Shown here piece after piece: positions 6,683 to 23,814 of a DNA stretch of 64,000 nt. The notes under the pieces were generated by a model. It did not search any database. It saw only the letters and a program-made list of their open reading frames with translations, and was not told the DNA's origin. Numbering within the stretch: position 1 is the first letter of the stretch; the number at the start of each line of letters is the position of its first letter. Origin of the DNA: Candidatus Poribacteria bacterium. Lineage in GTDB: Bacteria > Poribacteria > WGA-4E > WGA-3G. The position numbers were made by a program, and so were the translations under genes. Location of the stretch: positions 1,320,140-1,384,139 of the forward strand of contig OZ219753.1 of the NCBI GenBank assembly GCA_964291315.2, written 5' to 3'.

Positions 6683-8140
6683 TTAACCCTTCACAACCCC
6701 GACAGGGCGGAGGCGCGCTACACGACGCGAGAGACCGGCTTCGTCAACAACGCGAACCACTTCATCGACATCCTTGTATGCTTCTGGGACTTCTTCCTGA
6801 AGCGTGCGCCTGCCTTCAGCGCGCACATAGATACCTTGCGCCTCCAAATCCTTCTGAATGGAACGACCCTTTGTCAACGCGATCGCCTTTCGCCGGGAGA
6901 GAACTCTGCCCGCACCGTGACAGGTTGTCCCCCACGTCTCTGCCATCGCGCCGGGCTTACCGACAAGCACATAAGAGGCAGTGCCCATATCGCCAGGAAT
7001 CAGAACAGGTTGTCCAATTTTCTGGTATTTTTCGGGTATCTCTGGATGCCCCGCCGGAAATGCACGCGTTGCCCCTTTGCGATGGATAAATAACTCCCGT
7101 TCTTCTCCATCTACCGTGTGTTTTTCAAACTTCCCAATATTGTGGGCTACATCGTAGACCAGCTCTAAACCGAGCTCATCCGCTGTCGTTCCGAAAAACT
7201 GCATGAAGGTCTGGCGCACAAGGTGCATGATGCACTGCCGATTGTTCCATGCATAGTTCGCACCACACGCCATCGCAGCGATGTAGTCTTGTCCCTCAGG
7301 TGAATTGATTGGCGCTGAGGCAAGCTGCCGGTCGGGGAGAGTGATGCCGTATCTTTCAGCAACTTTAATCCAGCTTTTAACGTGTTCATCGCAAACCTGG
7401 TAACCGAAGCCACGCGAACCGGTATGAATCATCACACAGATGCTGCCCTCGCTGAGCCCCATCGCGTTAGCAGCTTCTCGGTAAAAAACGCGATCCACCG
7501 CTTGCACTTCAAGAAAGTGGTTACCCGACCCGAGCGTTCCGAGCTGATTCTTACCACGTTCTAAGGCGCGCCGGCTCGCAGCAGCGGCATCGGCGTGGTC
7601 TAGAAAACCTGTCGCCTCGGTAAAGTCGAGGTCACCGGCGTGTCCGTATTCACGCTCGATCGCCCACAGCGCACCTTTCTCTAACATCTGTCGTTCTTCT
7701 TGAAGGGTGAGCCGAATGTTGCCGCTTGAACCCACACCACACGGGATATTCTCAAACAGCTTGCCGACGAGTTCCCCGCGCTTCCCTTCAAGCTGCGAAA
7801 CATCAAGATTCGTTCGAATGAGTCGAACCCCGCAGTTGATGTCATACCCAATCCCGCCCGGAGAGACCACACCATCCGCTTGAGGATCTGTGGCAGCGAC
7901 ACCGCCGATAACGAACCCGTAACCCCAGTGCAAATCTGGCATCGCAAGCGAATGCTTGACAATACCCGGGAGATGCGCAACGTTCGCAACCTGCTGCAAC
8001 GCCTCGTCACTTTTTGCATGCTCAAGAAGCTTCTCGTTCGCATAGACAATACCATCAACCCGCATGCCCTTCATGTAGCTCTTCGGGATACGCCAACGGT
8101 ATTCGTCCAGCTTTTGGAGTGTTATGTTTTGTTGTGTCAT
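6683..8140 (-). CDS. rtcB: RNA-splicing ligase RtcB
   Basis: The ORF is full-length RtcB-like. Blocks read: VANVAHLPGIV, MPDLHWGYGF, GGIGYDINCG, GSGNHFLE, HTGSRGFG, HNI, CHGAGR. I used the ATG at 8140; an in-frame TTG at 8155 is the alternative start. Confidence 0.9.
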   Translation of the reverse strand: MTQQNITLQKLDEYRWRIPKSYMKGMRVDGIVYANEKLLEHAKSDEALQQVANVAHLPGIVKHSLAMPDLHWGYGFVIGGVAATDPQADGVVSPGGIGYDINCGVRLIRTNLDVSQLEGKRGELVGKLFENIPCGVGSSGNIRLTLQEERQMLEKGALWAIEREYGHAGDLDFTEATGFLDHADAAAASRRALERGKNQLGTLGSGNHFLEVQAVDRVFYREAANAMGLSEGSICVMIHTGSRGFGYQVCDEHVKSWIKVAERYGITLPDRQLASAPINSPEGQDYIAAMACGANYAWNNRQCIMHLVRQTFMQFFGTTADELGLELVYDVAHNIGKFEKHTVDGEERELFIHRKGATRAFPAGHPEIPEKYQKIGQPVLIPGDMGTASYVLVGKPGAMAETWGTTCHGAGRVLSRRKAIALTKGRSIQKDLEAQGIYVRAEGRRTLQEEVPEAYKDVDEVVRVVDEAGLSRRVARLRPVGVVKG

Positions 8141-8247
8141 ACCGCTATTATACAATATTTCTCACTATTAAGGTAACACATTCGCGTGAATAGCAGAATT
8201 ACCTAGAAACAAATCAGTATTCAGTATAGCGAGGCGGATAAAAAAAC

Positions 8248-8277
8248 TTGACACCGGCTGTCCATATTTCCTACAAT
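8248..8277 (+). promoter_or_regulatory. candidate sigma70 promoter upstream of the methyltransferase gene
   Basis: TTGACA (8248-8253), an 18-nt spacer, then TACAAT (8272-8277). Confidence 0.4.
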
Positions 8278-8431
8278 TGACAGACAGCTGATGCTAACTA
8301 AAAAATGGATACCCTAACTTGGATTAAAAGTATAACAAGGATCCTTAATTTTTGCGAAGAAATTTGAGACGACGCTTTAAATAGGACAATAGCTTTCACA
8401 TTTGCTACAGATGCCCGGGACCTAAAAACAG

Positions 8432-9864
8432 ATGACTCTATCGAATAGGACATTAATACGCGGCGATAATCTACAGGCAATGCGGGAGTTCTCCGATATT
8501 TGTATCGACTTGATCGCTACCGACCCGCCCTTCAACTCCAAACGAGACTACTTCTTGCCATACAGAGCCGAGAAAGGTCAAAAATCTGATGCCCTCGTCA
8601 AAGCGTTTTCAGATACATGGACATGGGGATCGGAAGCAGAGAGCACCTATCAAGAACTACTCATCGATGCCGAGGAACAGGTCAGCAGCACGATTCAAGG
8701 CCTACGCCAATGCCTCAACGAAATACCTATGATGGCATACCTAGTTATGATGACGGTACGCATTGTAGAAATGCATCGCATTCTCAAGGAAACCGGCAGT
8801 CTTTACCTGCATTGTGATCCTACGGCAAGCCACTACCTCAAAATCATACTCGATGCCGTGTTCGGTACACAGAATTTTAAAAATGAAATTGTGTGGCATT
8901 ACAAACGGTGGACAGCCGCTTCTAGACATTTTCAAAAAATGCACGATGTGATCTTCTGGTATTCTAAAACGGACGCTCATACCTTTACACAACCGCTGCA
9001 ACCTTTTTCTGATGAATCATATATCGAAAACACAGTGCGCGGTTTTGTCGACGGTAAACTGGTCCGATTAAAGCACAAAGACGGCAACTACGTCTTGCGC
9101 AAAACCCAAAAAGAGGGGTCTTGATGCACGATGTCTGGCATGACATCAACTTTATCCCGCCCTCAAGCACGGAACGGGCAGGCTACCCTACACAGAAACC
9201 TGTCGAACTTTACAAACGCATTATACAAGCGTCCTCAAATGCGGGTGATCGGGTCTTAGACCCATTTACAGGTTGCGGGACAACGGCCATCGCAGCAGAA
9301 AGCTTGAATCGTCAATGGATAGGTATAGACCGCACCTACCTTGCCGTCGGGACTGTCGCCCAACAAATAGAGAAATACTTTCCGCACCTCCGTGACGACA
9401 TCACTATTACCGGAACACCTGAAAACGCCCCTCAAGCGTTAGACCTAGCACACAGAAACCCACAAGACTTCGCGGAATGGATTGTCACGCACGTATTGAA
9501 ATTTAAATCGAATGCTAAGAAAGGTGGCGATGGCGGTATAGACGGTATCCTAAGATTCCCAATCGGTAAAGTCAACGGGAGACGAGCGTTCGGGAAAGCG
9601 GTGGCACAAGTCAAGGGCGGTCAATACACGCTTGGAGATCTCCGCGATTTTAGAACAGCTATGCGAAATCAAGAAGCTGAATTAGGAGTCTTTGTCGCTA
9701 CAACACCGCCCACGCGCGGCATGAAACAGGAAATCGCACGCGCAGGACGCTATAAGCATCCTAAATATAAAATGGAAATACCGAGCTTGCAACACTATCA
9801 GATACAAGACTATTTCACCGGTAAACTGCCGCAATTGCCTCACGCTGAGAGGAACCTCTTATAG
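8432..9864 (+). pseudogene. beta-class N6/N4 DNA methyltransferase fused to a C-terminal Mrr-type (PD-(D/E)xK) nuclease domain, split by a frameshift
   Basis: ORF 8432-9124 carries motif IV (IATDPPFN). ORF 9121-9864 is in the -1 frame and carries DVWHDI, ERAGYPTQKP and motif I (VLDPFTGCGTT), followed by GGDGGIDGIL...VAQVKGG...GVFVATT, which is Mrr_cat-like. The second frame is open from 9058. One extra G in the GGGG run at 9115-9118 would fuse the two parts as ...KEGVLMHDVW. Confidence 0.75.
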
Positions 9865-9920
9865 AAGATGTGTGGAAGATGTGCAGCGGAACCCTAAGAC
9901 GGGATCAGTCGGAAAACCTT

Positions 9921-9955
9921 ATCATTTTTTCTATACCGCCGATGCGTCCATTTAC
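9921..9955. repeat. 35-bp copy (33/35 identical) of part of the 15660-16130 gene (partner at 15814-15848)
   Basis: atcattttttctataccgccgatgcgtccatttac matches atcattttttctataccaccgatgcgttcatttac. On the minus strand it encodes VNGRIGGIEKM, against VNERIGGIEKM in the intact gene. Confidence 0.7.
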
Positions 9956-10190
9956 AACGTACGGACACCTCTGGCGGATATTTTTTTTACCTATAACGTG
10001 AGTTTGAAAAAAGAGTGAGCAGGCCCTTTTGTAGCAGAACGGTTTCGGTTCCTCTGCGAGGGGCTTGTAGCATAGACTGTCAGTTTCCTGTACCTCTTCG
10101 GCGCTTCTCACACCACCTGTTAGGCTGTGCAAGTACTCTCACTATCCACAGCTGATCTCAGCAATTATCAAGCCAGCGTTACGTATATGA

Positions 10191-11003
10191 TTAATTGTCG
10201 GCTTTTAGGCGTTTTATTTCAGCCAATGCGTCTGCGAGCTCTGCGTCTGCAGCGGCTGCGCGTGCATCGGCTTGTTGTCGTGCGTCTGCCTCTGTGGCTG
10301 CCCTGGCATCGGCCTCTGCGGCCCGTGCATCAGCCTCTTGTCGTGCTTTTGCCTCTGCTTGTGCTCGTGCATCAGCCTCTTGTCGTGCCTTTGCCTCTGC
10401 GGCTGCGCGTGCATCGGCGTGTCTAACCCGTCTCTCCAAAGGCTCTAGCCACGCTGAACGAACAGGATCATACAACCCGAGAGCCCCATCACGCTCGCCT
10501 AACTCTAAACCCAGCACAACCGACGGCAGACGACCGTTCACGAAGCCTATCTCCTCATACACGCCATCAACAAGACGATACCCGAGAAAAGAAGGCGACA
10601 CCTCGCCATAAGGATCGTAAATATAATACTCGCGCACCCCAAGCACCGACGCATACAACTCACGCTTAGCAGTCAAGTCCTGCCGATAGGTGCTGCGACT
10701 CGCTAACTCTAAGATAAAATCAGGCGCCTGCCCCTCTTCCCAGACCCGATAGGTGCGCCGCTGCTTTTTACTCACCCCGAAGACAACAAACACATCTGGC
10801 GACACCGATTTCCTCGGGTTCCCCTCCTTATAATACATCATGAGATTGCCAGAGACATATGCGTCGTTGACATCTTGGAAGTGGTGCTCCAGCATCTGAA
10901 TGCAGTCGATCATAAGTTTTCTGTGTTTGTCGGTTTCTGCCATAGGTTTATCGTCCGATTCGGGATAGACGAGCGTTGGAGCGGCTTTTATTTTGCTACA
11001 CAT
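10191..11003 (-). CDS. Uma2/DUF820-family putative PD-(D/E)xK endonuclease with ARA-rich coiled-coil tail (copy 1)
   Basis: 270 aa. Blocks read: [61 protein letters not shown]. These fit the Uma2 D...E.. ..K layout. The tail is made of [14 protein letters not shown] heptads and ends in [14 protein letters not shown]. Confidence 0.75.
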   Translation of the reverse strand: MCSKIKAAPTLVYPESDDKPMAETDKHRKLMIDCIQMLEHHFQDVNDAYVSGNLMMYYKEGNPRKSVSPDVFVVFGVSKKQRRTYRVWEEGQAPDFILELASRSTYRQDLTAKRELYASVLGVREYYIYDPYGEVSPSFLGYRLVDGVYEEIGFVNGRLPSVVLGLELGERDGALGLYDPVRSAWLEPLERRVRHADARAAAEAKARQEADARAQAEAKARQEADARAAEADARAATEADARQQADARAAAADAELADALAEIKRLKADN

Positions 11004-11048
11004 AGGTCTGCCTCCTGCCTCTACTATCGTAATAAACTTATAGAATAA

Positions 11049-11077
11049 AGTATATCAGCAAAAGCTGGATATATCAA
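11049..11077 (-). promoter_or_regulatory. sigma70-type promoter of Uma2 copy 1
   Basis: On the minus strand: TTGATA (11077-11072), a 17-nt spacer, then TATACT (11054-11049). GGAGG lies 8 nt before the ATG. Confidence 0.55.
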
Positions 11078-11120
11078 GTGGCTGATCTCAATAATTATCA
11101 AGGTTGCGTTGGGTATATGA

Positions 11121-11912
11121 TTACGTGTCAGTTTTTAGGCGTTTGAGTTCAGCCAATGCGTCTGCGAGCTCTGCGTCTGCAGCGTCTGCGCGTGCATCGG
11201 CTTGTTGTCGTGCGTCTGCCTCTGTGGCTGCCCGTGCGTCTGCCTCTGCTGCCCGTGTTTCTGCGCGTTGTCGTGCTTTTGCCTCTGCTTGTGCCCGTGC
11301 ATCGGCTTCTTGTGCCCGTGCATCGGCGTGTCTAACCCGTCTCTCCAAAGGCTCCAGCCACACCGAACGCACCGGATCATACAACCCGAGAACCCCATCA
11401 CGCTCGCCTAACTCTAAACCCAGCACAACCGACGGCAGACGATCCCCCACAAAACCTATCTCCTCATACACACCATCAACAAGACGATACCCGAGAAAAG
11501 AAGGCGACACCTCACCATAAGGATCGTAAATGTAATACTCGCGCACCCCAAGCACCGACGCATACAACTCACGCTTAGCAGTCAAGTCCTGCCGATAGGT
11601 GCTGCGACTCGCTAACTCTAAGATAAAATCAGGCGCCTGCCCCTCTTCCCAGACCCGATAGGTGCGCCGCTGCTTTTTACTCACCCCGAAGACAACAAAC
11701 ACATCTGGCGACACCGATTTCCTCGGGTTCCCCTCCTCATAATACAGCATGAGATTGCCAGAGACATATGCGTCGTTGACATCTTGGAAGTGGTGCTCCA
11801 GCATCTGAATGCAGTCGATCATAAGTTTTCTGTGTTTGTCGGTTTCTGCCATAGGTTTATCGTCCGATTCGGGATAGACGAGCGTTGGAGCGGCTTTTAT
11901 TTTGCTACACAT
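11121..11912 (-). CDS. Uma2/DUF820-family putative endonuclease with coiled-coil tail (copy 2)
   Basis: 263 aa. The N-terminal ~190 aa are almost identical to copy 1, and the tail is one heptad shorter. Confidence 0.75.
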   Translation of the reverse strand: MCSKIKAAPTLVYPESDDKPMAETDKHRKLMIDCIQMLEHHFQDVNDAYVSGNLMLYYEEGNPRKSVSPDVFVVFGVSKKQRRTYRVWEEGQAPDFILELASRSTYRQDLTAKRELYASVLGVREYYIYDPYGEVSPSFLGYRLVDGVYEEIGFVGDRLPSVVLGLELGERDGVLGLYDPVRSVWLEPLERRVRHADARAQEADARAQAEAKARQRAETRAAEADARAATEADARQQADARADAADAELADALAELKRLKTDT

Positions 11913-11957
11913 AGGTCTGCCTCCTGCCTCTACTATCGTAATGAACTTATAGAATAA

Positions 11958-11986
11958 AGTATATCAGCAAAAGCTGGATATATCAA
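11958..11986 (-). promoter_or_regulatory. sigma70-type promoter of Uma2 copy 2
   Basis: The same TTGATA-17-TATACT element is conserved in the repeated spacer. Confidence 0.55.
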
Positions 11987-12029
11987 GTGGCTGATCTCAA
12001 TAATTATCAAGGTTGCGTTGGGTATATGA

Positions 12030-12800
12030 TTACGTGTCAGTTTTTAGGCGTTTGAGTTCAGCCAATGCGTCTGCGAGCTCTGCGTCTAAAGCGTCTGCGC
12101 GTGCATCGGCTTGTTGTCGTGCGTCTGCCTCTGCTTGTGCTCGTGCATCAGCCTCTTGCCGGGCTCTTGCCTCTGCTTGCGCCCGTGCATCGGCTTCTTG
12201 TGCTCGTGCATCGGCGTGTCTAACCCGTCTCTCCAAAGGCTCCAGCCACGCTGAACGAACAGGATCATAAAATCCCAGTCGCCCCGCACGCTCGCCTAAC
12301 TCTAAACCCAGCACAACCGACGGCAGACGACCGTTCACGAAGCCTATCTCCTCATACACGCCATCAACAAGACGATACCCGAGAAAAGAAGGCGACACCT
12401 CACCATAAGGATCGTAAATGTAATACTCGCGCACCCCAAGCACCGAGGCATACAACTCACGCTTAGCAGTCAAGTCCTGCCTATACGTGCTGCGACTCGC
12501 TAACTCTAAGATAAAATCAGGTGCCTGCCCCTCTTCCCAGACCCGATAGGTGCGCCGCTGCTTTTTACTCACCCCGAAGACAACAAACACATCTGGCGAC
12601 ACCGATTTCCTCGGGTTGCCCTCCTCATAATACAGCATGAGATTGCCAGAGACATATGCGTCGTTGACATCTTGGAAGTGGTGCTCCAGCATCTGAATGC
12701 GGTCGATCATAAGTTTTCTGTGTTTGTCGGTTTCTGCCATAGGTTTATCGTCCGATTCGGGATAGACGAGCGTTGGAGCGGCTTTTATTTTGCTACACAT
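12030..12800 (-). CDS. Uma2/DUF820-family putative endonuclease with coiled-coil tail (copy 3)
   Basis: 256 aa with the same domain and the shortest tail. Confidence 0.75.
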   Translation of the reverse strand: MCSKIKAAPTLVYPESDDKPMAETDKHRKLMIDRIQMLEHHFQDVNDAYVSGNLMLYYEEGNPRKSVSPDVFVVFGVSKKQRRTYRVWEEGQAPDFILELASRSTYRQDLTAKRELYASVLGVREYYIYDPYGEVSPSFLGYRLVDGVYEEIGFVNGRLPSVVLGLELGERAGRLGFYDPVRSAWLEPLERRVRHADARAQEADARAQAEARARQEADARAQAEADARQQADARADALDAELADALAELKRLKTDT

Positions 12801-12845
12801 AGGTCTGCCTCCTGCCTCTACTATCGTAATGAACTTATAGAATAA

Positions 12846-12874
12846 AGTATATCAGCAAAAGCTGGATATATCAA
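12846..12874 (-). promoter_or_regulatory. sigma70-type promoter of Uma2 copy 3
   Basis: The same TTGATA-17-TATACT element is conserved in the repeated spacer. Confidence 0.55.
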
Positions 12875-12917
12875 GTGGCTGATCTCAATAATTATCAAGG
12901 TTGCGTTGGGTATATGA

Positions 12918-13751
12918 TTACGTGTCAGTTTTTAGGCGTTTGAGTTCAGCCAATGCGTCTGCGAGCTCTGCGTCTGCAGCGGCTGCGCGTGCATCGGCGT
13001 GTTGTCGTGCTTTTGCCTCTGCTTGTGCCCTGGCATCAGCCTCTTGTCGTGCTTTTGCCTCTGTGGCTGCGCGTGCATCGGCCTCTGCGGCCCTGGCATC
13101 GGCGTGTTGTCGTGCTTTTGCCTCTGCTTGCGCCCGTGCATCGGCTTCTTGTGCTCGTGCATCGGCAGTCTGCAGCCATACCGAACGAACAGGGTCATAA
13201 AATCCCAGTCGCCCCGCACGCTCGCCTAACTCTAAACCCAGCACAAGCGACGGCAGACGACCTTCCAAGAAGCCTATCTCCTCATACGCACCGTCCACAA
13301 GACGATACCCGAGAAAAGAAGGCGACACCTCGCCATAAGGATCGTAAATATAATACTCACGCACCCCAAGCACCGATGCATACAACTCACGCTTAGCAGT
13401 CAAGTCCTGCCTGTAGGTGCTTGGACTCGCCAACTCTAAGACAAAATTAGGCGCGTGTCCCTCTTCCCAGACGCGATAGGTGCGCCGATCCTGTTTGCTG
13501 ACGCCGAAGACAACGAACACATCCGGAGACACGGATTTCTTAGGGTTTCCCTCTTCATAATACAGCATCAGATTGCCAGAGACATATACATCGTTGACCT
13601 TGCGGAAGTGGTGATTGAGTTTCTGAATGCAATCCATCATGAGGCTTCTGTGTTTATCAGTTTCTGCCATAGGTTTACCGTCCGATTCGGGATAGAGGAT
13701 CGTTGGGTCTGGGTAGACCAACGTTGGAACGGCTTTTATGCTTCTCGGCAT
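12918..13751 (-). CDS. Uma2/DUF820-family putative endonuclease with coiled-coil tail (copy 4, divergent)
   Basis: 277 aa. The N-terminus is divergent and carries an internal duplication (PTLVYPDPTILYPESDGKP). It lacks the EPLERRVRH linker. Its upstream spacer is short (76 nt) and unrelated to the others. Confidence 0.7.
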   Translation of the reverse strand: MPRSIKAVPTLVYPDPTILYPESDGKPMAETDKHRSLMMDCIQKLNHHFRKVNDVYVSGNLMLYYEEGNPKKSVSPDVFVVFGVSKQDRRTYRVWEEGHAPNFVLELASPSTYRQDLTAKRELYASVLGVREYYIYDPYGEVSPSFLGYRLVDGAYEEIGFLEGRLPSLVLGLELGERAGRLGFYDPVRSVWLQTADARAQEADARAQAEAKARQHADARAAEADARAATEAKARQEADARAQAEAKARQHADARAAAADAELADALAELKRLKTDT

Positions 13752-13827
13752 GGCACTACCTCCTGTCTCTCTTGTTGTAATGAACTTATTGTATAGAGTT
13801 TATCCATACTGTTTGATCACGGAATCA

Positions 13828-14661
13828 TTATTTTTCAGTTTTCAGGCGTTTTATTTCAGCCAATGCGTCTGCGAGCTCTGCGTCTGCAGCTGCTGCGCGT
13901 GCATCGGCTTGTTGTCGTGCTTTTGCCTCTGCTTGTGCCCTGGCATCAGCCTCTTGTCGTGCTTTTGCCTCTGTGGCTGCCCGTGCATCGGCCTCTGCGG
14001 CCCTGGCATCAGCCTCTTGTCGTGCTTTTGCCTCTGCTTGCGCCCTGGCATCAGCTTCTTGTGCCCGTGCATCAGCGTGTCTAACCTGTTTATCCAAAGG
14101 CTCCAGCCATACCGAACGAACAGGATCATACAACCCGAGAACCCCATCACGCTCGCCTAACTCTAAACCCAGCACAAGCGACGGCAGACGATCCCCCGCA
14201 AAATCTATCTCCTCATACACACCATCAACAAGACGATACCCGAGAAAAGAGGGCGACACCTCGCCATAAGGATCGTAAATGTAATACTCACGCACCCCAA
14301 GCACCGAGGCATACAACTCACGCTTAGCAGTCAAGTCCTGCCGATAGGTGCTGCGACTCGCTAACTCTAACACAAAATCGGGCGCATGTCCCTCTTCCCA
14401 GACCCGATAGGTGCGCCGATCCTTTTTGCTGACCCCGAAGACAACAAACACATCTGGCGATACCGATTTCCTCGGGTTCCCCTCCTCATAATACAGCATG
14501 AGATTGCCAGAGACATATGCGTCGTTGACATCTTGGAAGTGGTGCTCCAGCATCTGAATGCAGTCGATCATAAGTTTTCTGTGTTTGTCGGTTTCTGCCA
14601 TAGGTTTATCGTCCGATTCGGGATAGACGAGCGTTGGAGCGGCTTTTATTTTGCTACACAT
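13828..14661 (-). CDS. Uma2/DUF820-family putative endonuclease with coiled-coil tail (copy 5)
   Basis: 277 aa. It carries the [19 protein letters not shown] variant shared with copy 6. Confidence 0.75.
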
Positions 14662-14706
14662 AGGTCTGCCTCCTGCCTCTACTATCGTAATAAACTTATA
14701 GAATAA

Positions 14707-14735
14707 AGTATATCAGCGAAAGCTGGATATATCAA
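14707..14735 (-). promoter_or_regulatory. sigma70-type promoter of Uma2 copy 5
   Basis: The same TTGATA-17-TATACT element is conserved in the repeated spacer. Confidence 0.55.
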
Positions 14736-14778
14736 GTGGCTGATCTCAATAATTATCAAGGTTGCGTTGGGTATATGA

Positions 14779-15591
14779 TTACGTGTCAGTTTTTAGGCGT
14801 TTGAGTTCAGCCAATGCGTCTGCGAGCTCTGCGTCTAAAGCTTGTGCGCGTGCATCAGCCTCTTGCCGGGCTCTTGCCTCTGCGTCTGCGCGTGCATCGG
14901 CGTGTTGTCGTGCTTTTGCCTCTGCTTGTGCTCGGGCATCAGCCTCTTGCCGGGCTCTTGCCTCTGCTTGCGCCCTGGCATCGGCTTCTTGTGCCCGTGC
15001 ATCAGCGTGTCTAACCTGTTTATCCAAAGGCTCCAGCCATACCGAACGAACAGGATCATACAACCCGAGAACCCCATCACGCTCGCCTAACTCTAAACCT
15101 AGCACAAGCGACGGCAGACGACCGTTCACGAAGCCTATCTCCTCATACACGCCATCAACAAGACGATACCCGAGAAAAGAAGGCGACACCTCACCATAAG
15201 GATCGTAAATATAATACTCACGCACCCCAAGCACCGACGCATACAACTCCCGCTTAGCAGTCAAGTCCTGCCGATAGGTGCTGCGACTCGCTAACTCTAA
15301 CACAAAATCGGGAGCGTGTCCCTCTTCCCAGACCCGATAGGTGCGCCGATCCTTTTTGCTGACCCCGAAGACAACAAACACATCTGGCGATACCGATTTC
15401 CTGGGGTTCCCCTCCTCATAATACATCATGAGATTGCCAGAGACATATGCGTCGTTGACATCTTGGAAGTGGTGCTCCAGCATCTGAATGCAGTCGATCA
15501 TAAGTTTTCTGTGTTTGTCGGTTTCTGCCATAGGTTTATCGTCCGATTCGGGATAGACGAGCGTTGGAGCGGCTTTTATTTTGCTACACAT
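14779..15591 (-). CDS. Uma2/DUF820-family putative endonuclease with coiled-coil tail (copy 6)
   Basis: 270 aa. Its upstream spacer matches the other units only up to about 15653, and the -10 element is degraded there. Confidence 0.75.
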
Positions 15592-15659
15592 AGGTCTGCC
15601 TCCTGCCTCTACTATCGTAATGAACTTATAGGATAAAGGGTATCAGCAAAAGCTGCCCC

Positions 15660-16130
15660 TTATGGTTGGACTATTCGCTGTTGTTTGAGGGTCTCTATAT
15701 CTGCTGCCAGCGCCTCGATCTGCTTTTCGAAGATGCGTTCTTTTCTAATGCGCCACATCATTATCACCTGTGGCAGCCCTATAACGACCCCTATTATTAC
15801 CATCAGCCACGTCATCATTTTTTCTATACCACCGATGCGTTCATTTACGCCGTCAATGCGTCCTTCTACGCCGTCAATGCGCCCATTTACAGCGTCTATG
15901 CGCCCTTCTACACCCTCGATGCGCCCGTTTACAGCGTCTATGCGCCCATTAAGGGCAGCGACTTGAGTCTTTAGGGTCACGATGTCGGCTCTTATCGGCT
16001 TCAGCTCCTCGCTGAGCTCCTCTTTGATGATCAACCGTATCTTATTCAGATCGGCATCCGTTAACGCACAAAACACAGGCGAGGCAATCACAAAAAAGAG
16101 CACAGAGAGTATAAATACCTTTTGCATCAC
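15660..16130 (-). CDS. small bitopic membrane protein with heptad repeats (hypothetical)
   Basis: 156 aa. It has an N-terminal signal/TM segment (VFILSVLFFVIASPVFCA) and six consecutive 7-aa repeats (RIDAVNG RIEGVEG RIDAVNG RIDGVEG RIDGVNE RIGGIEK). A TM helix (WLMVIIGVVIGLPQVIMMW) and a short coiled C-terminus follow. Confidence 0.6.
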   Translation of the reverse strand: MMQKVFILSVLFFVIASPVFCALTDADLNKIRLIIKEELSEELKPIRADIVTLKTQVAALNGRIDAVNGRIEGVEGRIDAVNGRIDGVEGRIDGVNERIGGIEKMMTWLMVIIGVVIGLPQVIMMWRIRKERIFEKQIEALAADIETLKQQRIVQP

Positions 16131-16179
16131 GGACTCCTCTGGACCAATTTAGCTTTCATGCTTACTTTTCATGCTCACT

Positions 16180-16208
16180 ATTGTCCCATTTTCTCAAGCG
16201 TTTGTCAA
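16180..16208 (-). promoter_or_regulatory. candidate promoter of the heptad-repeat membrane protein gene
   Basis: On the minus strand: TTGACA (16208-16203), a 17-nt spacer, then GACAAT (16185-16180). Confidence 0.4.
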
Positions 16209-16345
16209 GGAAATTGAGATGTGCCTACATTTGACTACACTACATTTGCCCCTATTTTTCGCGACTGCAACACGCCCCACCACTTGATAAAAAAAATGAA
16301 ACCGTCACCGCAGATTTATAGTTAAATTAACGATTGACTTTTTAG

Positions 16346-16375
16346 TTGACTTTTTTTCTAACGTCCGTGTATAAT
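16346..16375 (+). promoter_or_regulatory. candidate sigma70 promoter of the large adhesin gene
   Basis: TTGACT (16346-16351), an 18-nt spacer, then TATAAT (16370-16375). This leaves a leader of about 190 nt before the ATG at 16569. Confidence 0.5.
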
Positions 16376-16383
16376 ATAGGAAT

Positions 16384-16465
16384 ACCTTGTTGGGGCGGCA
16401 CTGCTAGGTCCTGTGCTGACAGGAACTGCCGCCCTACCATCCTAGCAGGGGGTCAAAAACAAGGT
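16384..16465 (+). promoter_or_regulatory. highly structured leader element (nested helices plus a crossing/alternative helix), class unknown
   Basis: All pairings below are perfect Watson-Crick. 16384-16391 (accttgtt) pairs with 16458-16465 (aacaaggt). 16393-16400 (gggcggca) pairs with 16427-16434 (tgccgccc). 16409-16414 (tcctgt) pairs with 16419-16424 (acagga) across a gctg loop. 16401-16408 (ctgctagg) pairs with 16441-16448 (cctagcag), which crosses the second helix. Confidence 0.35.
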
Positions 16466-16568
16466 CAGGGTAACCAGTTTTTTTCAAATCACAATAGACA
16501 TCACGGCATGCGGAGACTCCGTGATAAACGTGATGCATTGACAAGACAAGGAGAAGGATATTTTCTTT

Positions 16569-19500
16569 ATGAAAAACGTAATAACGCAAAAAATCGCCTT
16601 AAGCCTGCTGATAACGCTTGTATTAGCGTTCGGGGTGCCGGGAGGCGCAGACGCGATTACCAGGTTCACCAGAACCTCCAGCGACTACCCATTGGTAGCA
16701 CCTCAAACAGACTTCACCATTCGGTTCGGAGTCACCTTTACCTCCACCTCCACCGATTCAGAGACGGCTCGGATTACAGTATCGGGAGGCTCTCTCAAGA
16801 AAGTAGGAAACTTTGACGCTTCTGGAACTACCCAAGATTTAACGGAGGGAGGAACCGCCGGCAAAGGACAGCTCCTCAGCTCTCACACATTAACCCTGAC
16901 TTCCGGCGCAGCAGGCAAGATGAGCGTTACAATCTCGGATCGAACCTCCGGTGACAAAGCCAACGATTTGGTCTTTACGATCTACGTATCACCCGCTTTT
17001 ACAAGTACTAACGCTCCGGCCTTCAGCAGCAGCTCTGTTACGACCGCTAGAGGGGATGTAAAATTTTCAACCTCAACGCCGCTAACCCTTAGCGGGGAGC
17101 ACATCCGATTAAACTATAGGGTTACAGGTAACGGATCCGTCTTTATCAAAGAAGATGGCAAGGACGCAGGTACCACTTCAAAAAACCTGACCACATCTTC
17201 CGCGGCACCTGTCTATGTTCGTATGGGGGGAGGTACTAACAGAATAGCTATCTCTATTGTTGGTCAAAGAGCTAGCTCAACCATACAGGCTACCTATATC
17301 TATGGGGAGGAAACGGTACAAATAGTATCTGGCGATAAGCAGACCGGCGCAGTAGGCTCGGCTCTCGGCCAGCCGTTCGTTGTTAGGCTGACAGATACTG
17401 CGAATCGGCCTATTTCTGGCGTAAACGTTACATTTGATCCAGAAACAACAGATAATGACGAAGCTGCAATATTCATAAAAGATCTCGGTACGCCCGACGA
17501 TTTGCATGTTGCTTATGGTGCAGGCACTACTCCATTCACCACTACCCAAGGTCAAGCCGTAGTAAAAACCAATGCCAACGGCGAAGCCAAGGCTGTTTGG
17601 GTACTGCACCGGACTGCGCATGCCCTTGAGAATGTTGCCCATGCTCACCTGAGTGGGCGTTCTTCGGGAAGTAATGCTTCAGTTGCTTTTCAGGCAAGGG
17701 CTGTAGCAAAAAACCCGGTCGTGAGCTCTATTGTGATAGCATCCGGCAACGGGCAGAGCGCCGATCAATACGGAATCATCGCCAACCCTTTGGTGGTTAG
17801 CGTCCGAGATTCGGCCGGCCACTTGGTTAAAGGACAAACAGTGCTGTTCATCGCGTTAAGTGGCGGGACACTCAGTAACAGCTCAGACGAAGAGCCAGGG
17901 GCAGCCTCTGGCAGTAGCAGTGGTGCTAGTGTAACAGTCACAACAGATAACAGGGGTCAAGCCGGTGTTCGCTATGCGCCGTCGCAAGTCGGCGGAAGCC
18001 AGCAGGTGCGGGCGAGCATTACAGGGAGCGCCAGCTCCGTAACTTTTACTGTCAACGGCACACGAGGCACAACCCCAACTACACCTACAACTACACCCGA
18101 TTCCACCACACCCTCGACCCCAACCACACCTCCGCCGACGGACGGCGGGATTGTCGCAAGTCGCCTCAGAGTGGTGAGCGGTAACCAGCAGACCGGTGCA
18201 CCAGGGGCAGTGCTCAACCCGTTTGTCGTTCAACTCTTAGATACAGACGGCGACGGCATTGATCTCGTGGAGATCGATTTTGAAGTTGTATCCGGGAGCG
18301 GCACGCTCTCTGATAGCATGGATCAGACCGATGAGAGTGGCAATGCACGCTCAACGCTCACCCTCGGCAGTTCCGCTGGCACCGTAACCGTCCGGGTAAG
18401 CGTAGATTCCGATGAAATCGGGGGCCGTTCCATTTCCCCAGTCACCTTCACTGCAACGGCAGAGGTAACAACATTGCCACCCGATGCAATCAACATCGTC
18501 GGCGATGAAACGTTGACCGGCGATATCAACGAAGAGATAGAGCTCACCGTCCAAGTTGTAGATGCAGATGAAGATGGGGTAGACTTCGAACTCGTCACGT
18601 TCACCGTCACTGAAGGAAACGGGAGACTTCGCCCCAGTAGAGATCGAACCGACGAGGATGGCAATGCATCGACCTTTTTCACGCCTACCTCCCCGGGAAC
18701 GTTGGAAGTTCGAGCCAATTCAGGCGACCTGGATCCTGTCACTTTCACGATCACAACCTCCGATCCGCCTGACGCGATTACGATTATCTCCGGAAACAAC
18801 CAGAGCGGTAGACCCGGGGCCAGACTTGCCAACCCGTTTGTCGTTAGAGTGACTGATGCCCTCGACGACCCAGTTGCTGGGGTGACAGTCTCATTTTCGG
18901 TGACCGCAGGCGGCGGTAGCCTCTCCACCCAGAGCGCAACCACGAATAGCAACGGACGCGCACAGGCAGTGCTGACCCTCGGCGCTGACTCCGGCAATAA
19001 CACCGTCACTGCACGTGTCACAGGGCTGACGCCTGTTACCTTCAGGGCGATGTCGGGGGCAGAAGTGCACGTGGCTGCCGCACAGCGCCCACCGATGTAC
19101 TGGGTTGGTAGAGCCCAAGGCACGCTCCATCGCCTCGTCGGCGCCGCAGTTGAGAACCTCCTGCCGAATGTCACGGGTGTCACGGACATCGCAGTGGATG
19201 CAGCACAGGGAGCTCTCTATTTTGCTGTGAAAGTAGGTGAAAACAGAGGTTCCATCCGGAGTTCAGCCCTCAATGGACAGAACGTCAGGACTATCAAGAC
19301 GTTGACGGCTGTCCCCAACGGAATCGCCGTTGACGCGGCAAGCCAGACGGTCTATTGGACAAACTCCCGCGGCCGAATCCAATCTATCCCTGCAACGGGG
19401 AGCTCCAAGCTCACCAACGAAGTACAGAATATCTCTAACCCGAGCGCAATTGCGGTTTACAACCAATTTGTCTATTGGGTAGAGTTGAACCGGCTCCGCA

Positions 19501-20528
19501 GGGCCAGTCTCACTGCCACACCGCAGACGGCGGAAACGCTTGCAACGGCAGATGGCAATATTGTGAGCATCGCCGTCGCCAAAGGCAAAATTTACTGGAT
19601 CGAAAGCGGTGTAGGCGGACGGGGGACTCTCAAACGTTCCAACCTCGCAGGCAAGAACGTCGAAACCCTTAAAACCTTCGCCTCCAATGTACCCACTTCG
19701 GTAGCAGTGGATAGTTCAGACAACAAAATTTACTGGACGAAGGGCTCAGGTACAATCCAGCGCTCGAACCTCGCGGGTAAGTGGACGAAAAACATCGTTA
19801 CCGGATTGGCTAACCCGAGTGCTATCGCGCTTGGCACAATAACAGACAACCCGACTCCTGCCCAGCCGGCATCTTTGATATCAGAGGGGACAACGCCTAA
19901 AAAACCAACCACCTCCAAATACGATGTCAATGGCGATGGCAGCGTGGACGATCAGGATGTCACCCTTGTAGCACTCGCCCTTGACGGAAAATATAACGCA
20001 AAATACGACGTTAACGGTGACAAAGTGGTGGACGCAAAAGACCTCCGCGCAGTCATCAATAACACAGAGGACACTTCCGCAGCACCCGCAATCAATCTAG
20101 ACCTGAAGGCACTAGACATCGATTTCGATCGGGTTCAGGCACAGATTGAGAGCGTACTGGTATCCGACGATATGTCGCCCTCAACGCGACGCACATTGAT
20201 GTATCTCCAACACCTCTTGGCAACAGCGCGGCCCTCGGAGACAACGTTGTTAACCAACTATCCGAACCCGTTCAACCCAGAAACTTGGATACCGTATCAA
20301 TTGGCGGACAGCACCGAGGTGCGGATTAACATCTACGATGCCCAAGGCATCTTGATACGGGCATTGAACCTCGGGCATCAAACCGCGGGCTACTACACCC
20401 ACCGGAGTCGCGCCGCGTATTGGGACGGACGCAACGCCCTCGGCGAACCGGTTGCGAGCGGTATCTACTTCTACCAGCTCCAAACCGATACAACCTCCCT
20501 TATGCGGAAAATGGTTATCTTGAAGTAG
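16569..20528 (+). CDS. large secreted multidomain adhesin-like protein (Big_1 Ig-like repeats, YWTD-type beta-propeller, dockerin-like repeats, C-terminal T9SS/FlgD-type sorting domain)
   Basis: 1319 aa with a signal peptide. It has repeated Big_1-like modules (IVSGDKQTG..GSALGQPFVVRLTD, VVSGNQQTGAPGAVLNPFVVQLLD, IISGNNQSGRPGARLANPFVVRVTD) and a PT-rich linker. Blades follow with YWTN/YWVE/IYWIE/IYWTK. Next come two DVNGDGSVDDQD / DVNGDKVVDAKD calcium-binding repeats. The tail is NYPNPFNPETWIPYQL...GIYFYQLQ. Confidence 0.8.
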   Translation: MKNVITQKIALSLLITLVLAFGVPGGADAITRFTRTSSDYPLVAPQTDFTIRFGVTFTSTSTDSETARITVSGGSLKKVGNFDASGTTQDLTEGGTAGKGQLLSSHTLTLTSGAAGKMSVTISDRTSGDKANDLVFTIYVSPAFTSTNAPAFSSSSVTTARGDVKFSTSTPLTLSGEHIRLNYRVTGNGSVFIKEDGKDAGTTSKNLTTSSAAPVYVRMGGGTNRIAISIVGQRASSTIQATYIYGEETVQIVSGDKQTGAVGSALGQPFVVRLTDTANRPISGVNVTFDPETTDNDEAAIFIKDLGTPDDLHVAYGAGTTPFTTTQGQAVVKTNANGEAKAVWVLHRTAHALENVAHAHLSGRSSGSNASVAFQARAVAKNPVVSSIVIASGNGQSADQYGIIANPLVVSVRDSAGHLVKGQTVLFIALSGGTLSNSSDEEPGAASGSSSGASVTVTTDNRGQAGVRYAPSQVGGSQQVRASITGSASSVTFTVNGTRGTTPTTPTTTPDSTTPSTPTTPPPTDGGIVASRLRVVSGNQQTGAPGAVLNPFVVQLLDTDGDGIDLVEIDFEVVSGSGTLSDSMDQTDESGNARSTLTLGSSAGTVTVRVSVDSDEIGGRSISPVTFTATAEVTTLPPDAINIVGDETLTGDINEEIELTVQVVDADEDGVDFELVTFTVTEGNGRLRPSRDRTDEDGNASTFFTPTSPGTLEVRANSGDLDPVTFTITTSDPPDAITIISGNNQSGRPGARLANPFVVRVTDALDDPVAGVTVSFSVTAGGGSLSTQSATTNSNGRAQAVLTLGADSGNNTVTARVTGLTPVTFRAMSGAEVHVAAAQRPPMYWVGRAQGTLHRLVGAAVENLLPNVTGVTDIAVDAAQGALYFAVKVGENRGSIRSSALNGQNVRTIKTLTAVPNGIAVDAASQTVYWTNSRGRIQSIPATGSSKLTNEVQNISNPSAIAVYNQFVYWVELNRLRRASLTATPQTAETLATADGNIVSIAVAKGKIYWIESGVGGRGTLKRSNLAGKNVETLKTFASNVPTSVAVDSSDNKIYWTKGSGTIQRSNLAGKWTKNIVTGLANPSAIALGTITDNPTPAQPASLISEGTTPKKPTTSKYDVNGDGSVDDQDVTLVALALDGKYNAKYDVNGDKVVDAKDLRAVINNTEDTSAAPAINLDLKALDIDFDRVQAQIESVLVSDDMSPSTRRTLMYLQHLLATARPSETTLLTNYPNPFNPETWIPYQLADSTEVRINIYDAQGILIRALNLGHQTAGYYTHRSRAAYWDGRNALGEPVASGIYFYQLQTDTTSLMRKMVILK

Positions 20529-20540
20529 TCGCACAACATA

Positions 20541-20580
20541 AAAGAGGCACGGTCTCAAAACCGTGCCTCTTTTATTTATA
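20541..20580 (+). terminator. rho-independent terminator of the adhesin gene
   Basis: 12-bp perfect stem: aaagaggcacgg (20541-20552) pairs with ccgtgcctcttt (20561-20572) across an 8-nt loop. A T-rich tract (tatttata) follows. Confidence 0.8.
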
Positions 20581-20919
20581 AATAGATTGGAAAGCACCGC
20601 CTGGCCTTCCTTAAAATGGATCTCCTTGAACAGAAACGACGTGTGTATTAACCGTTTCCGTTTGTAATCTCCTTTGACTTGAATATCTTGGCGGACGCTC
20701 TGTCACTATATAGGCGCTTGTAGCATAGACTCTCATTTGAAAATAAAAACGAAAAAAAATAAAACTTTTTTCTCCGAGATGTGTATATACCTATTAAGAG
20801 GGCAACCTGTGTGTTATGTTGTTCTCTGTAAGTAGCATTTGAAAAGTATTCCGATTTCACTTATAGGTGTGAACGTTTCGCTGGAAGATGTGTAGCGTTT
20901 GCGAAGAAGGAGAAGAGTC

Positions 20920-21261
20920 ATGTCAACAGAGGTTCGTTATAAAGCAGGGGTTGTTATAGTTGAGCCCCGTGGCAAGATAATAGGTGGGCGTGTCTCGGAG
21001 CTACGGACTGCGATATTACCAGAGGTGAGAGCCTGTGATGCCCCTCGTATTCTGATAGATTTATCGCATGCACATCGTTTAGATTCCTCGGGTTTAGGGG
21101 TGCTGATGCAAGCGTATGTGCTGACGAAGCACAAGCGTGGGCGCATCGGTGTCATCCATGTCGGCAAACACATCAGGAACTTACTGGTTATCAGCCGGTT
21201 ATTGACATCATTTGAGCATTTCAACAGCGAGTCTGCGGCGGTTGCAGCGTTTGGAAAATAG
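20920..21261 (+). CDS. STAS-domain protein (anti-sigma-factor antagonist, SpoIIAA-like), copy A
   Basis: 113 aa counted from the ATG preceded by GGAGAAGAG. It has the typical STAS layout (VVIVEPRGKIIGG...ILIDLSHAHRLDSSGLGVLM). Confidence 0.75.
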   Translation: MSTEVRYKAGVVIVEPRGKIIGGRVSELRTAILPEVRACDAPRILIDLSHAHRLDSSGLGVLMQAYVLTKHKRGRIGVIHVGKHIRNLLVISRLLTSFEHFNSESAAVAAFGK

Positions 21262-21319
21262 GTAAAGAAGGCTGCAGCGCCCCTTTTGCGTTCGTTTGAA
21301 AAAACAGTTGTTCCGTCCC

Positions 21320-21351
21320 GGAGTCACAGCTGGATTGCCGGCTGTGGCTCC
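21320..21351 (+). terminator. 14-bp hairpin downstream of STAS copy A (possible terminator/attenuator)
   Basis: ggagtcacagctgg / attg / ccggctgtggctcc. The two G-U pairs form only on the + (sense) RNA. The hairpin is followed by gtgtttcc, which is a weak U tract. Confidence 0.35.
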
Positions 21352-21429
21352 GTGTTTCCAAATATCTACCCGCGCTGTTGAATACAAGCATCTCTTTCGC
21401 GGTTTTGCAAATTGTCACGGAGTATCCAA

Positions 21430-23577
21430 ATGAGATGTGTCACTAACGTCTTGATAGCGCTTCTGTTTCTGATTAACCCTATCGGGCATTCACAATCCGA
21501 TAACCGTATTGTAGCTTTTGATTGTCCAAAACTGCCGACTTCTGAATTCAATTTCGATGTAGATAGCCAAGTTATCGCGCTTTTAATGGAGGACCCAACC
21601 TCGGATATACCACCGTTGTTTAACACTATCGATGTTCTCTCCCTGCGCAGCTATCGAGGGCAGTCCGTCAGTTTCAAGGACATCGTTGAATATTATCAAG
21701 ATATTCTAGAAGCGCGCCAGTGGCACGTTTTAAGACTCCCCGCCGAAGATGATTTAGAAAGTGCCACTTTGCATCTCTATGTCCTCCAAGAAAACGACAC
21801 TGTTTACGGGATCTTTGCTATGATAAAAAGCACCGATACAGTGTACCTCATAAACATCACGGGTGCGATCCCGGAAGAGCAGCTAGGTGCCTTGCTCACA
21901 GGTCTCAATAAACTCAGTATTGAAATCCCGGAGCTCATGTCCCTGAATTCTGAGAGTGTGAAAGCTGCGCGAGCGGAAACATCAATGCCTGCTCAAACTG
22001 CCCCAGCAACGAGAACGCCTTCTGTTACACCGCGCGAGACTCCGCCGCTTACGCGAACTGTCTCACTCCTAAGATCTATGACTATCTCAGCGGCGGGCAG
22101 TAGCCCTGTCTACGAATCAATACCTGACACGTTAGTCGGGCAGAAAAACGACCTACAGGCTTCAAAAAACATCCCCCGTTTTTGGGCTGGCGACGTGCCT
22201 ATCCACGCTATACGAATCCGGGGAAACCAGAAAATTTCAGAACAGGTCATCCGACAGACACTCGAAAATAGTCAGTCGCCTGACCTCTCAAAAGCGCTGG
22301 AGACCCTCTTTAAAGCGGCTCCCTATTTTAAAGAGATCGCTTTACAAGTAGATAAGGAAAGTTCGAAATATATCGCCACAATTACGTTTAGTGAAAAACT
22401 GCTTTCTACCGGTGTATACCTCGGCTTCCACCGCCAACTGCGTCTCGGTTTCAACCGAGTGACAGGCTGGGAGATCGGGGCAACAGGTATTGAATTCGGT
22501 AAAAGAGAGAATGTCGGTCCGTTTTGGGTGTGGAACCTCAGCGATTCAGTCAGTGATCGCACCCACAAACTCTTTGGAGAGGCCAATTATGTCTTCGGCA
22601 ACCCGCGTTTTCACTACCGTTTGGGTGGAACGGCGAATTGGGGGAAGCTTCATACGTGGAGCCTCGGACTCACCGCACAAATTCACCGTTTGACAGATGT
22701 CGTTGCCCCTGAACTCTTTCCGAACATGCCGCTCCCTAATTTTCAACGGACTATCGGGGCACCGGACCTTCAAAATTACTATCTTCGCCAAGGTGCCGAG
22801 ATCGCGATGCGATGGTCACCCGAAATGCCGCTTCACACGTTCAAAATGACAATGCTTGCAGAGTCACAGTCGAGCCTACAGAAAAGCACAGATTGGTTTC
22901 TCACGAATTGGAGCTCAACCTACACTGTCAGGGAAAACCCACCAATACGCCCCGGGAAAATGCGAAGCATCGCCTTCCAATACGATTTTCGGGACCTGAA
23001 AAGAAGATCTTTGGGATGGCAGAATACCCTCCTCATCGAACATAGCAATACTCGCTTTGGATCCGACTTCGATTTTACACGTTTGCTCTTACACCTCCGG
23101 TACGCTTTTCCGCTCGGGGATCACCGAGTGCGCACCCGATTTCTTTTCGGGTTCTCCAACAGATCACTTCCCGTTCAACGCCAATTTGTTATAAATGGGA
23201 TAGCGGGACTCCGCGGATATCCTTGGTACAGAGAAGAAAATGAACCCGAAGGTTTTATGAATTACAAGTTCGGGCACACCGTTTCTCCCTATGCCTTTGC
23301 GGGAGACCGCGGGTTTCTACTCAACGTTGAATATCACCACAGCTTAGCAACCCTATTGAGGTGGAGTTTTTTCAAAACTGCGTTCGCGATTATCTTCTTA
23401 GACGAAGGACAAGTTTGGCATGTATCCGGCCCGGCGTATACTTTCAATCCCAAAGGGAACATCGGCATCGGTGCACAGATGTTAGTCGGTATTTTCCTTC
23501 TCCGAGCCAACATCGCAAAAGCCTTTGAGTCCGGAAAAGGGTTTCAAGTTACGACGGTTTTAAACCACCCGTTTTAG
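21430..23577 (+). CDS. Omp85/BamA-TamA-family outer-membrane protein (single POTRA-like module plus beta-barrel)
   Basis: The start was moved to the ATG at 21430, where GGAG lies 8 nt upstream. It has a signal peptide (VLIALLFLINPIGHS) and a PT-rich linker. A POTRA-like block (IHAIRIRGNQKISEQVIRQTLE) follows. The C-terminal region is long, aromatic- and Gly-rich, and ends in ...VLNHPF with a terminal Phe. Confidence 0.55.
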   Translation: MRCVTNVLIALLFLINPIGHSQSDNRIVAFDCPKLPTSEFNFDVDSQVIALLMEDPTSDIPPLFNTIDVLSLRSYRGQSVSFKDIVEYYQDILEARQWHVLRLPAEDDLESATLHLYVLQENDTVYGIFAMIKSTDTVYLINITGAIPEEQLGALLTGLNKLSIEIPELMSLNSESVKAARAETSMPAQTAPATRTPSVTPRETPPLTRTVSLLRSMTISAAGSSPVYESIPDTLVGQKNDLQASKNIPRFWAGDVPIHAIRIRGNQKISEQVIRQTLENSQSPDLSKALETLFKAAPYFKEIALQVDKESSKYIATITFSEKLLSTGVYLGFHRQLRLGFNRVTGWEIGATGIEFGKRENVGPFWVWNLSDSVSDRTHKLFGEANYVFGNPRFHYRLGGTANWGKLHTWSLGLTAQIHRLTDVVAPELFPNMPLPNFQRTIGAPDLQNYYLRQGAEIAMRWSPEMPLHTFKMTMLAESQSSLQKSTDWFLTNWSSTYTVRENPPIRPGKMRSIAFQYDFRDLKRRSLGWQNTLLIEHSNTRFGSDFDFTRLLLHLRYAFPLGDHRVRTRFLFGFSNRSLPVQRQFVINGIAGLRGYPWYREENEPEGFMNYKFGHTVSPYAFAGDRGFLLNVEYHHSLATLLRWSFFKTAFAIIFLDEGQVWHVSGPAYTFNPKGNIGIGAQMLVGIFLLRANIAKAFESGKGFQVTTVLNHPF

Positions 23578-23754: not shown

Positions 23755-23814
23755 ATGATACAAGTGGTGTTTTTTTTCAAACGGACACAAAAGGGGCGCT
23801 GCAGGCTGCTTTAC

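Follow-up and report, generated by a model that had tools for sequence, protein, structure and literature searches.

Six tandem Uma2-family nuclease-fold genes with heptad-repeat tails in a Candidatus Poribacteria genome

A 64,000-nt stretch of a Candidatus Poribacteria assembly (GCA_964291315.2, contig OZ219753.1, positions 1,320,140 to 1,384,139; hereafter the window) was found to carry six minus-strand genes of the Uma2 (DUF820) family arranged head to tail. Listing of open reading frames (ORFs) and repeat finding confirmed the six-gene tandem array in the assembled sequence, with all six ORFs intact. A first-pass annotation made from the DNA letters had placed six such paralogs at 10151–15653, and this was borne out, the repeat homology running from 10151, in the 3′ flank of copy 1, to 15655, in the 5′ leader of copy 6. 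We propose that the array was built from a promoter-carrying unit, that it has been kept because its protein is useful and that the proteins may act as stand-alone nucleases in DNA surveillance or defence. For structure, evolution and role taken together we estimate a probability of about 0.5; the structural and evolutionary part is held with high confidence and the role is put forward tentatively.

Among bacterial nuclease-fold families that lack a known function, Uma2/DUF820 is one of the largest, and its nature has been debated for twenty years, with proposals of a selfish element, a solo toxin and a defence candidate. The locus offers a clean natural example, having six intact copies, most with a promoter of their own, that show purifying selection, concerted evolution and a fast-changing heptad count, and it adds sponge symbionts to Cyanobacteria as a setting of family expansion. 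Active-site residues, stalk length and a terminal leucine motif provide experimental handles. As the organism has not been cultivated, the practical gain is modest, and the locus does not itself reveal the function.

Architecture and family identity of the array

The DNA repeat has a period of 888–931 nt, with start-to-start spacings of 909, 888, 930, 931 and 930 nt, and protein identity to copy 1 is 84–95 %, copy 4 being the outlier. Four of the spacers are 117 nt long and near-identical, copy 4 is preceded by a divergent spacer of 76 nt, and the region upstream of copy 6 is shared with the other units only over its proximal ~64 nt. At the junctions the native 3′ flank of one unit meets the promoter of the next; no transposase, terminal inverted repeats, target duplications or intron or intein context, as would mark a transposable or homing element, was seen at the unit boundaries. 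Long plus-strand antisense ORFs within the array (e.g. 10195–10611 and 15316–15636) were set aside as by-products of the Ala-rich repeats or as present in some units only.

Table 1. Features of the array and its surroundings, in window coordinates
Feature	Position	Strand	Description
RtcB gene	6683–8155		Borders the island
Lineage-specific island	8156–24534		16.4 kb, between the RtcB and oxidoreductase genes
N6/N4 DNA methyltransferase (MTase) and Mrr-like domain fusion	8432–9864	+	Two overlapping ORFs; frameshift at ~9121 beside A5 and G4 runs
Relic of coiled-coil membrane protein gene	9921–9955		35 nt, 94 % identical to 15814–15848; downstream of copy 1
Whole tandem array	10151–15655	−	Six units of 888–931 nt, each promoter, 5′ untranslated region with ribosome-binding site, Uma2-stalk ORF and ~45-nt 3′ flank
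Copy 1	10191–11003	−	270 aa; head at residues ~22–186; tail of 12 heptads (84 residues), DNA 10191–10445
Promoter-like site, copy 1	11049–11077	−	TTGATA-17-TATACT, TG-extended
Copy 2	11121–11912	−	263 aa; tail of 11 heptads (77 residues), DNA 11121–11354
Promoter-like site, copy 2	11958–11986	−	TTGATA-17-TATACT, TG-extended
Copy 3	12030–12800	−	256 aa; tail of 10 heptads (70 residues), DNA 12030–12242; conversion tract with copy 4
Promoter-like site, copy 3	12846–12874	−	TTGATA-17-TATACT, TG-extended
Copy 4	12918–13751	−	277 aa; tail of 12 heptads (84 residues); most divergent; 7-aa N-terminal insertion YPDPTIL
Copy 5	13828–14661	−	277 aa; tail of 13 heptads (91 residues)
Promoter-like site, copy 5	14707–14735	−	TTGATA-17-TATACT, TG-extended
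Copy 6	14779–15591	−	270 aa; tail of 12 heptads (84 residues); transcriptionally first
Small coiled-coil membrane protein gene	15660–16130	−	Directly upstream of copy 6
Promoter-like site, coiled-coil gene	16180–16208		
Eukaryote-like surface protein gene	16569–20528	+	1319 aa; Big_1 Ig domains, LDL-receptor class B (YWTD) repeats, dockerin, T9SS sorting domain; divergent from array
Inverted repeat, first arm	20745–21353		609 nt; arms 91 % identical
Omp85-like gene	21412–23577		Flanked by the inverted repeat
Inverted repeat, second arm	23721–24329		
GFO/IDH/MocA oxidoreductase gene	24535–25704		Borders the island

The first-pass assignment of the proteins to Uma2, with its PD-(D/E)xK fold, was supported by profile, sequence and structure searches. 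Each of the six proteins scores 70–74 bits against Pfam Uma2 (PF05685), for which the cut-off is 27 (E ~1e-20), and a phmmer search of Protein Data Bank (PDB) sequences finds 6okh. An AlphaFold model (AF2, 42 homologs, mean pLDDT 85) consists of the alpha/beta head and a single helix at residues 189–269, and Foldseek gives eight significant PDB matches, every one of Uma2/DUF820 type (6okh, 9y1l, 3ot2, 3ijm, 1wdj), with probability 1.00. E23, E99 and K113 do not vary among the 42 homologs, and at least 90 % of these keep D70; all four residues are present in each of the six copies, as is the pattern of E, PD, E-x-x-S and a relocated K that constitutes the unusual Uma2 active site with a migrated lysine described by Feder and Bujnicki (PMC551604).

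The array proteins thus share with the Uma2/DUF820/COG4636 family the domain itself, by both profile and fold, the catalytic pattern E...PD...E-x-x-S...K and the habit of lineage-specific proliferation. They differ from the solved Uma2 structures (1wdj, 3ot2, 6okh, 9y1l), which are heads of ~150–190 aa without a long tail, whereas a heptad helix of 70–91 residues is present here; the host phylum also differs, with Poribacteria in place of Cyanobacteria or Deinococcus-Thermus. No hydrophobic signal-like stretch was seen on reading the N-terminus, so the proteins are presumably cytoplasmic. NCBIfam holds no model for the protein, and the phage genomes searched contained no homolog.

A consensus scan recovered the TTGATA-17-TATACT site, with a TG-extended −10 element, upstream of copies 1, 2, 3 and 5 only, and GGAGG precedes all six start codons. 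The claim of the first-pass annotation that four units have promoters of their own was confirmed at the level of the motif, and it is reinforced by the same site at the same position upstream of orthologs. About a dozen orthologs in other Poribacteria species (L001–L013, L015) have TTGACA or TTGATA-17-TGnTAnAAT within the 95 nt upstream, at an equal distance from a conserved leader and GGAGG, and the window spacer CTTGATATATCCAGC...TGATATACT is visibly homologous to these regions. Because the homologous site is conserved in other Poribacteria, the predicted promoter is ancestral and was part of the duplicated unit, not a product of the duplication junction.

The two remaining copies probably depend on transcription from upstream. 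Copy 6 has lost its −35 element, the upstream coiled-coil gene having its stop codon in that region, and TACCCT stands at the −10 position; transcription together with that gene, from the gene's own promoter-like site, is probable. Copy 4, which has no promoter match, probably relies on read-through from copy 5. No terminator-like hairpin occurs in the spacers, all terminator-like hits lying inside coding sequence, which makes read-through likely, and internal initiation and read-through are both plausible. The fold of the spacer RNA is no better than that of shuffled sequences (z = −0.47), and an Rfam scan of the entire window gave no match.

The 3′ third of each gene contains 21-, 42- and 63-nt repeats (Tandem Repeats Finder), and the tails counted from the end of the head (..WL) are exact multiples of seven residues in all six copies (Table 1). 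Two registers of the stalk, 4 and 3 residues apart, hold Ala as the small a/d residues, with Leu, Ile or Val at the end. Over its final two heptads the stalk carries a Leu-rich terminal motif in which L256, L260 and L266 are invariant or nearly so across the family. The composition of the stalk gives many i to i+4 acid–base pairs, so the rod could be either a coiled coil or a stable single helix.

Far outside the window, too, the stalk is hypervariable in length, among copies, paralogs and strains. Members of the same 90 %-identity cluster from different assemblies differ in length by multiples of seven (e.g. 237/251/258, 244/258/272 and 251/272/326 aa). The number of heptads differs in all four other co-resident near-identical pairs examined, in which in-frame tail indels of 1–6 heptads separate the copies (L034, 231 vs 273 aa; L039, 221 vs 256; L058, 235 vs 249; L044, 238 vs 231), and the six copies in the window span four lengths. 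Since two cyanobacterial plasmid homologs also carry a helical tail, shorter and ending in RADRLTEKLRKLGIDL and RAERLAQRLRELGEDPD, the tail and its terminal leucine motif appear to be a feature of a subfamily that has been expanded in Poribacteria. The portions of the Uma2 literature examined do not mention a heptad tail.

In the proposed mechanism the heads would pair as a dimer and the rigid tail would act as a dimerising or spacing rod, to which each heptad would add ~1 nm by standard alpha-helix geometry. A more ambitious idea, to which we give little credence, is that the stalk is a functional ruler or sorting device, yielding a graded set of rod-mounted nucleases in each cell, as the difference in heptad number between co-resident paralogs might suggest, or that the genes are wired into surface-protein operons as recombination modules. 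Were this true, rod length would fix how far apart two catalytic heads sit on DNA or stop cross-pairing of paralogs, and those Poribacteria Uma2 genes that stand in surface-protein operons would diversify host-interaction genes. In-frame change of repeat number in a helical spacer between otherwise close proteins is known from the central repeats of Type I restriction HsdS, in EcoR124I/II; its extension to the Uma2 stalk as a DNA-spacing ruler is a working analogy only.

Origin and evolution of the copies

The array probably arose by unequal homologous recombination or slippage of a unit comprising a sigma-70 promoter, a ~40-nt leader with GGAGG, the ORF and the ~45-nt 3′ flank. Amplification in this lineage would have provided dosage and a set of stalk-length variants, and the copies would have been kept for the usefulness of the protein rather than as decaying duplicates. 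Over the head region, dN/dS is 0.15–0.26 for all copy pairs (Nei–Gojobori), and all six copies are under purifying selection. Values of dS are 0.08–0.19 among copies 1, 2, 3, 5 and 6 and ~0.4 to copy 4. By these dN/dS and dS values the copies are not decaying duplicates, nor is their amplification brand-new.

Gene conversion between copies had been proposed in the first-pass annotation from residue strings shared in mosaic fashion. The strings were all present as claimed (KKQRR/GQAPDFIL, the patch common to copies 3 and 4, and the VNGRLPSVV variants), and the proposal is supported by recombination tests. These relied on adjacency and run-length permutation, after a PHI-type test over too wide a span had been uninformative (p=0.997). 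The 31 informative sites support nine bipartitions of the six copies, and 244 of their 465 pairs fail the four-gamete test. Identical bipartitions cluster physically, with 13 adjacent pairs against 4.8 expected in permutations (p=1e-4). Although 73 of 99 polymorphic sites distinguish copy 3 from copy 4, the two share an uninterrupted identical run over coding-sequence alignment columns 513–552 (p<2e-4), which encodes ..ERAGRLGF..; long identical 5′ runs are common to several other copy pairs.

Beyond the window, the same 3.26-Mb contig carries at least seven more paralogs (P0002, P0124, P0125, P0005, P0006, P0126 and P0064). Copy 4 resembles P0064 in having the YPDPTI(L/V) insertion together with the ERAGRLGF patch, and because these are shared with dispersed paralogs, exchange with copies outside the array is likely. 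Among 77 loci of the closest Uma2 relatives in other species, most hold a single copy, eight hold two copies 4–9.5 kb apart and none holds a tight array.

The array had been presented in terms that implied novelty, and this did not stand. Feder and Bujnicki in 2005 reported massive lineage-specific proliferation of the family in virtually random genomic context, with another family member as the only recurrent neighbour, and several tandem duplications, among them one run of four consecutive genes in Crocosphaera (PMC551604). Makarova, Wolf and Koonin described 'cassettes of paralogous genes' of Uma2 in 2009 (PMC2701414), and a survey of 2012 still goes no further than to call the family a predicted endonuclease. 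Lineage-restricted tandem amplification of nuclease genes has also been reported alongside a Uma2 expansion (PMC9403480); the genes belong to a different family, and the parallel is an analogy only. As in the cyanobacterial cassettes, the genes here are consecutive paralogs on a species-specific branch with close relatives elsewhere on the chromosome, and they have no conserved partner gene and no correlation with methyltransferases.

Because such tandem duplications and cassettes were published in 2005 and 2009, the array adds a new and unusually large case to a known kind and does not define a new one, with six copies against four in the largest case of the 2005 paper. The earlier accounts do not document a conserved promoter for each unit, conversion tracts, purifying selection or variation in heptad number, all of which are recorded here. 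Of the new facts, those of most use are the promoter conserved in the unit, the fast-changing stalk of exact heptads, the island context and the link of a sister clade to surface-protein operons; no paper linking Uma2 to sponges or Poribacteria was found.

Possible roles of the proteins

The products would be Mg-dependent DNA nucleases. The role that we favour, tentatively and at somewhat less than even odds, is that of a stand-alone, host-useful nuclease for surveillance or defence against foreign or structurally unusual DNA. It is favoured because orthologs with a strong promoter persist at stable loci, because the copies are under purifying selection and because some neighbourhoods are rich in defence genes. 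The orthologs are kept as single genes at such loci in many assemblies, which argues for a gene useful to the host. The leaning towards defence comes from one ortholog that lies beside ThsB-TIR, DUF1156 and DUF499 genes and from the MTase-Mrr gene that the array adjoins. The head also matches four PADLOC candidate PDC-S03 models (E 1e-6 to 1e-12, the best at 1e-11 to 1e-12), its only match to a defence system; this is a family-level domain match to a candidate that derives from defence-island enrichment and has no validated activity, and it is not evidence of defence here.

Several points weigh against a surveillance or defence role, the candidate status of PDC-S03 among them. The portions of the Uma2 literature examined contain no biochemical data, activity or phenotype for any Uma2 protein. 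The neighbourhoods of the relatives are heterogeneous, including a P-type ATPase with glycosyltransferases, dehydrogenases and surface-protein operons, so an association with defence is not general. The homology of paralog pairs elsewhere is also confined to the gene, which would equally fit a selfish, recombinogenic element.

Such an element was proposed by Feder and Bujnicki in 2005 (PMC551604): the nuclease would cut or nick DNA, stimulate homologous repair and thereby spread and homogenise its own gene. The array and the near-identical dispersed copies would then result from this activity, and the host would tolerate them. We consider this reading rather unlikely in absolute terms and nearly as good as that of a surveillance or defence nuclease. 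At least 13 paralogs occupy one chromosome. In four other genomes, paired copies 4–6 kb apart (L034, 4242/10001; L039, 4210/10001; L058, 4127/10001; L044, 6051/10001) are 93–98.6 % identical over the gene only, between unrelated flanks, and copies within a genome are slightly closer to each other (93.9 and 94.9 %) than positional orthologs are (91.5 and 93.7 %). Ordinary gene conversion between conserved paralogs, however, would explain such gene-limited homology without any nuclease activity. The absence of transposase, terminal repeats, intron or intein context and target duplications at the unit boundaries also tells against a selfish element, as do the purifying selection on all copies and the persistence, across species and assemblies, of orthologs that retain a conserved strong promoter at stable loci.

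It is improbable that the proteins are solo toxins or parts of a toxin–antitoxin (TA)-like stress module, a reading under which the six genes would amount to stacked addiction or stress genes. Makarova et al. 2009 named Uma2 a likely solo toxin (PMC2701414), DUF820 proteins have been reported near TA genes in Synechocystis (PMC4963859), and one homolog on a cyanobacterial plasmid has VapC, Xre and RES genes around it. In the array, however, there is no partner ORF, and the 76–117-nt spacers hold neither an ORF nor a structured RNA. A near-consensus constitutive promoter would be hard to square with an unneutralised toxin, and six copies without an antidote would be unlikely. A Type II TA module was rejected, since no small antitoxin gene or RNA is adjacent (no ORF, no Rfam match and no stable spacer fold).

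The least probable account, for which we see very little room, is an assembly artefact or chimera in which joined strain variants inflated the copy number: the source is a metagenome-assembled chromosome and the unit junction, searched for as an exact sequence in genome and metagenome collections, had no match in other public assemblies, but the copies differ by 5–15 % and in tail length, as well as in spacer, unlike the copies of a collapsed or inflated assembly repeat, the four occurrences of the junction of 3′ flank and promoter are slightly different from one another, bubbles rather than ordered tandem arrays are the usual outcome of strain variants, and the 3.26-Mb length of the contig is typical of long-read assembly.

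Genomic island and neighbouring genes

To place the array in context, RtcB was used as an anchor and the syntenic region was compared in 80 Poribacteria species (L081–L160). The oxidoreductase gene ends 30–50 nt from RtcB in more than 15 of the 80; elsewhere the site holds variable genes, often for T9SS surface proteins, and none of the 80 species has a Uma2 gene between RtcB and the oxidoreductase. As the syntenic site is empty or differently filled in other species, the segment between these two genes is a lineage-specific island. It contains the frameshifted MTase-Mrr gene, the six Uma2 genes and the genes for the coiled-coil membrane protein, the surface protein and the Omp85-like protein. 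There are no tRNA genes in the window, and no integrase was present among the ORFs scanned near the array.

The MTase-Mrr gene is either a pseudogene or the product of a homopolymer sequencing error. The suggestion in the first-pass annotation that it forms a dedicated system with the array was not upheld, because the gene is frameshifted and on the opposite strand, and an MTase-Mrr-like gene was found within 10 kb of just 3–4 of the 77 related Uma2 loci. This low co-occurrence agrees with the published lack of correlation between the Uma2 family and methyltransferases (PMC551604). The gene was likewise rejected as a partner in a Type II restriction–modification system, as no intact, co-occurring cognate methyltransferase was found.

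The coiled-coil membrane protein has 21-nt (heptad) repeats at 15814–15950, encoding VNGRIDA/VEGRIDG, and weak XhlA/DUF7310-like matches. It was rejected as a conserved partner because no homolog occurs in the 77 Uma2 loci. The array is bracketed by the intact copy and a relic of this gene, as the 35-nt segment downstream of copy 1 matches the gene upstream of copy 6; the minus-strand ORF at the relic ends in ..VVNGRIGGIEKMIRFSD.

The eukaryote-like surface protein encoded beyond the coiled-coil gene carries LDL-receptor repeats, which have been highlighted as a eukaryote-like feature of Poribacteria (PMC3909097). In other Poribacteria, a large gene for a eukaryote-like surface protein ends 15–284 nt upstream of 16 of 84 Uma2 genes on the same strand, against ~0.6 expected by chance (L015, L017, L034, L039, L049, L051, L053, L058, L066, L070–L072, L074, L075 and L077; also L078). 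These upstream proteins have LRR, cohesin, dockerin and T9SS sorting domains, and L034 has two cassettes of surface protein followed by Uma2, 5.76 kb apart. The short same-strand distances suggest that the nuclease may be co-transcribed there with secreted host-interaction proteins.

At one locus (L079, 1–9826) the Uma2 gene follows a defence-rich stretch of NOV_C, ThsB-TIR, a DDE transposase and DUF1156 with DUF499. Sister assemblies (L161–L165) carry a P-type ATPase at the position of this stretch, so the Uma2 gene marks the edge of a variable region. Within the island of the window, the segment around the Omp85-like gene, enclosed by the 609-nt inverted repeat, could be invertible or recombining.

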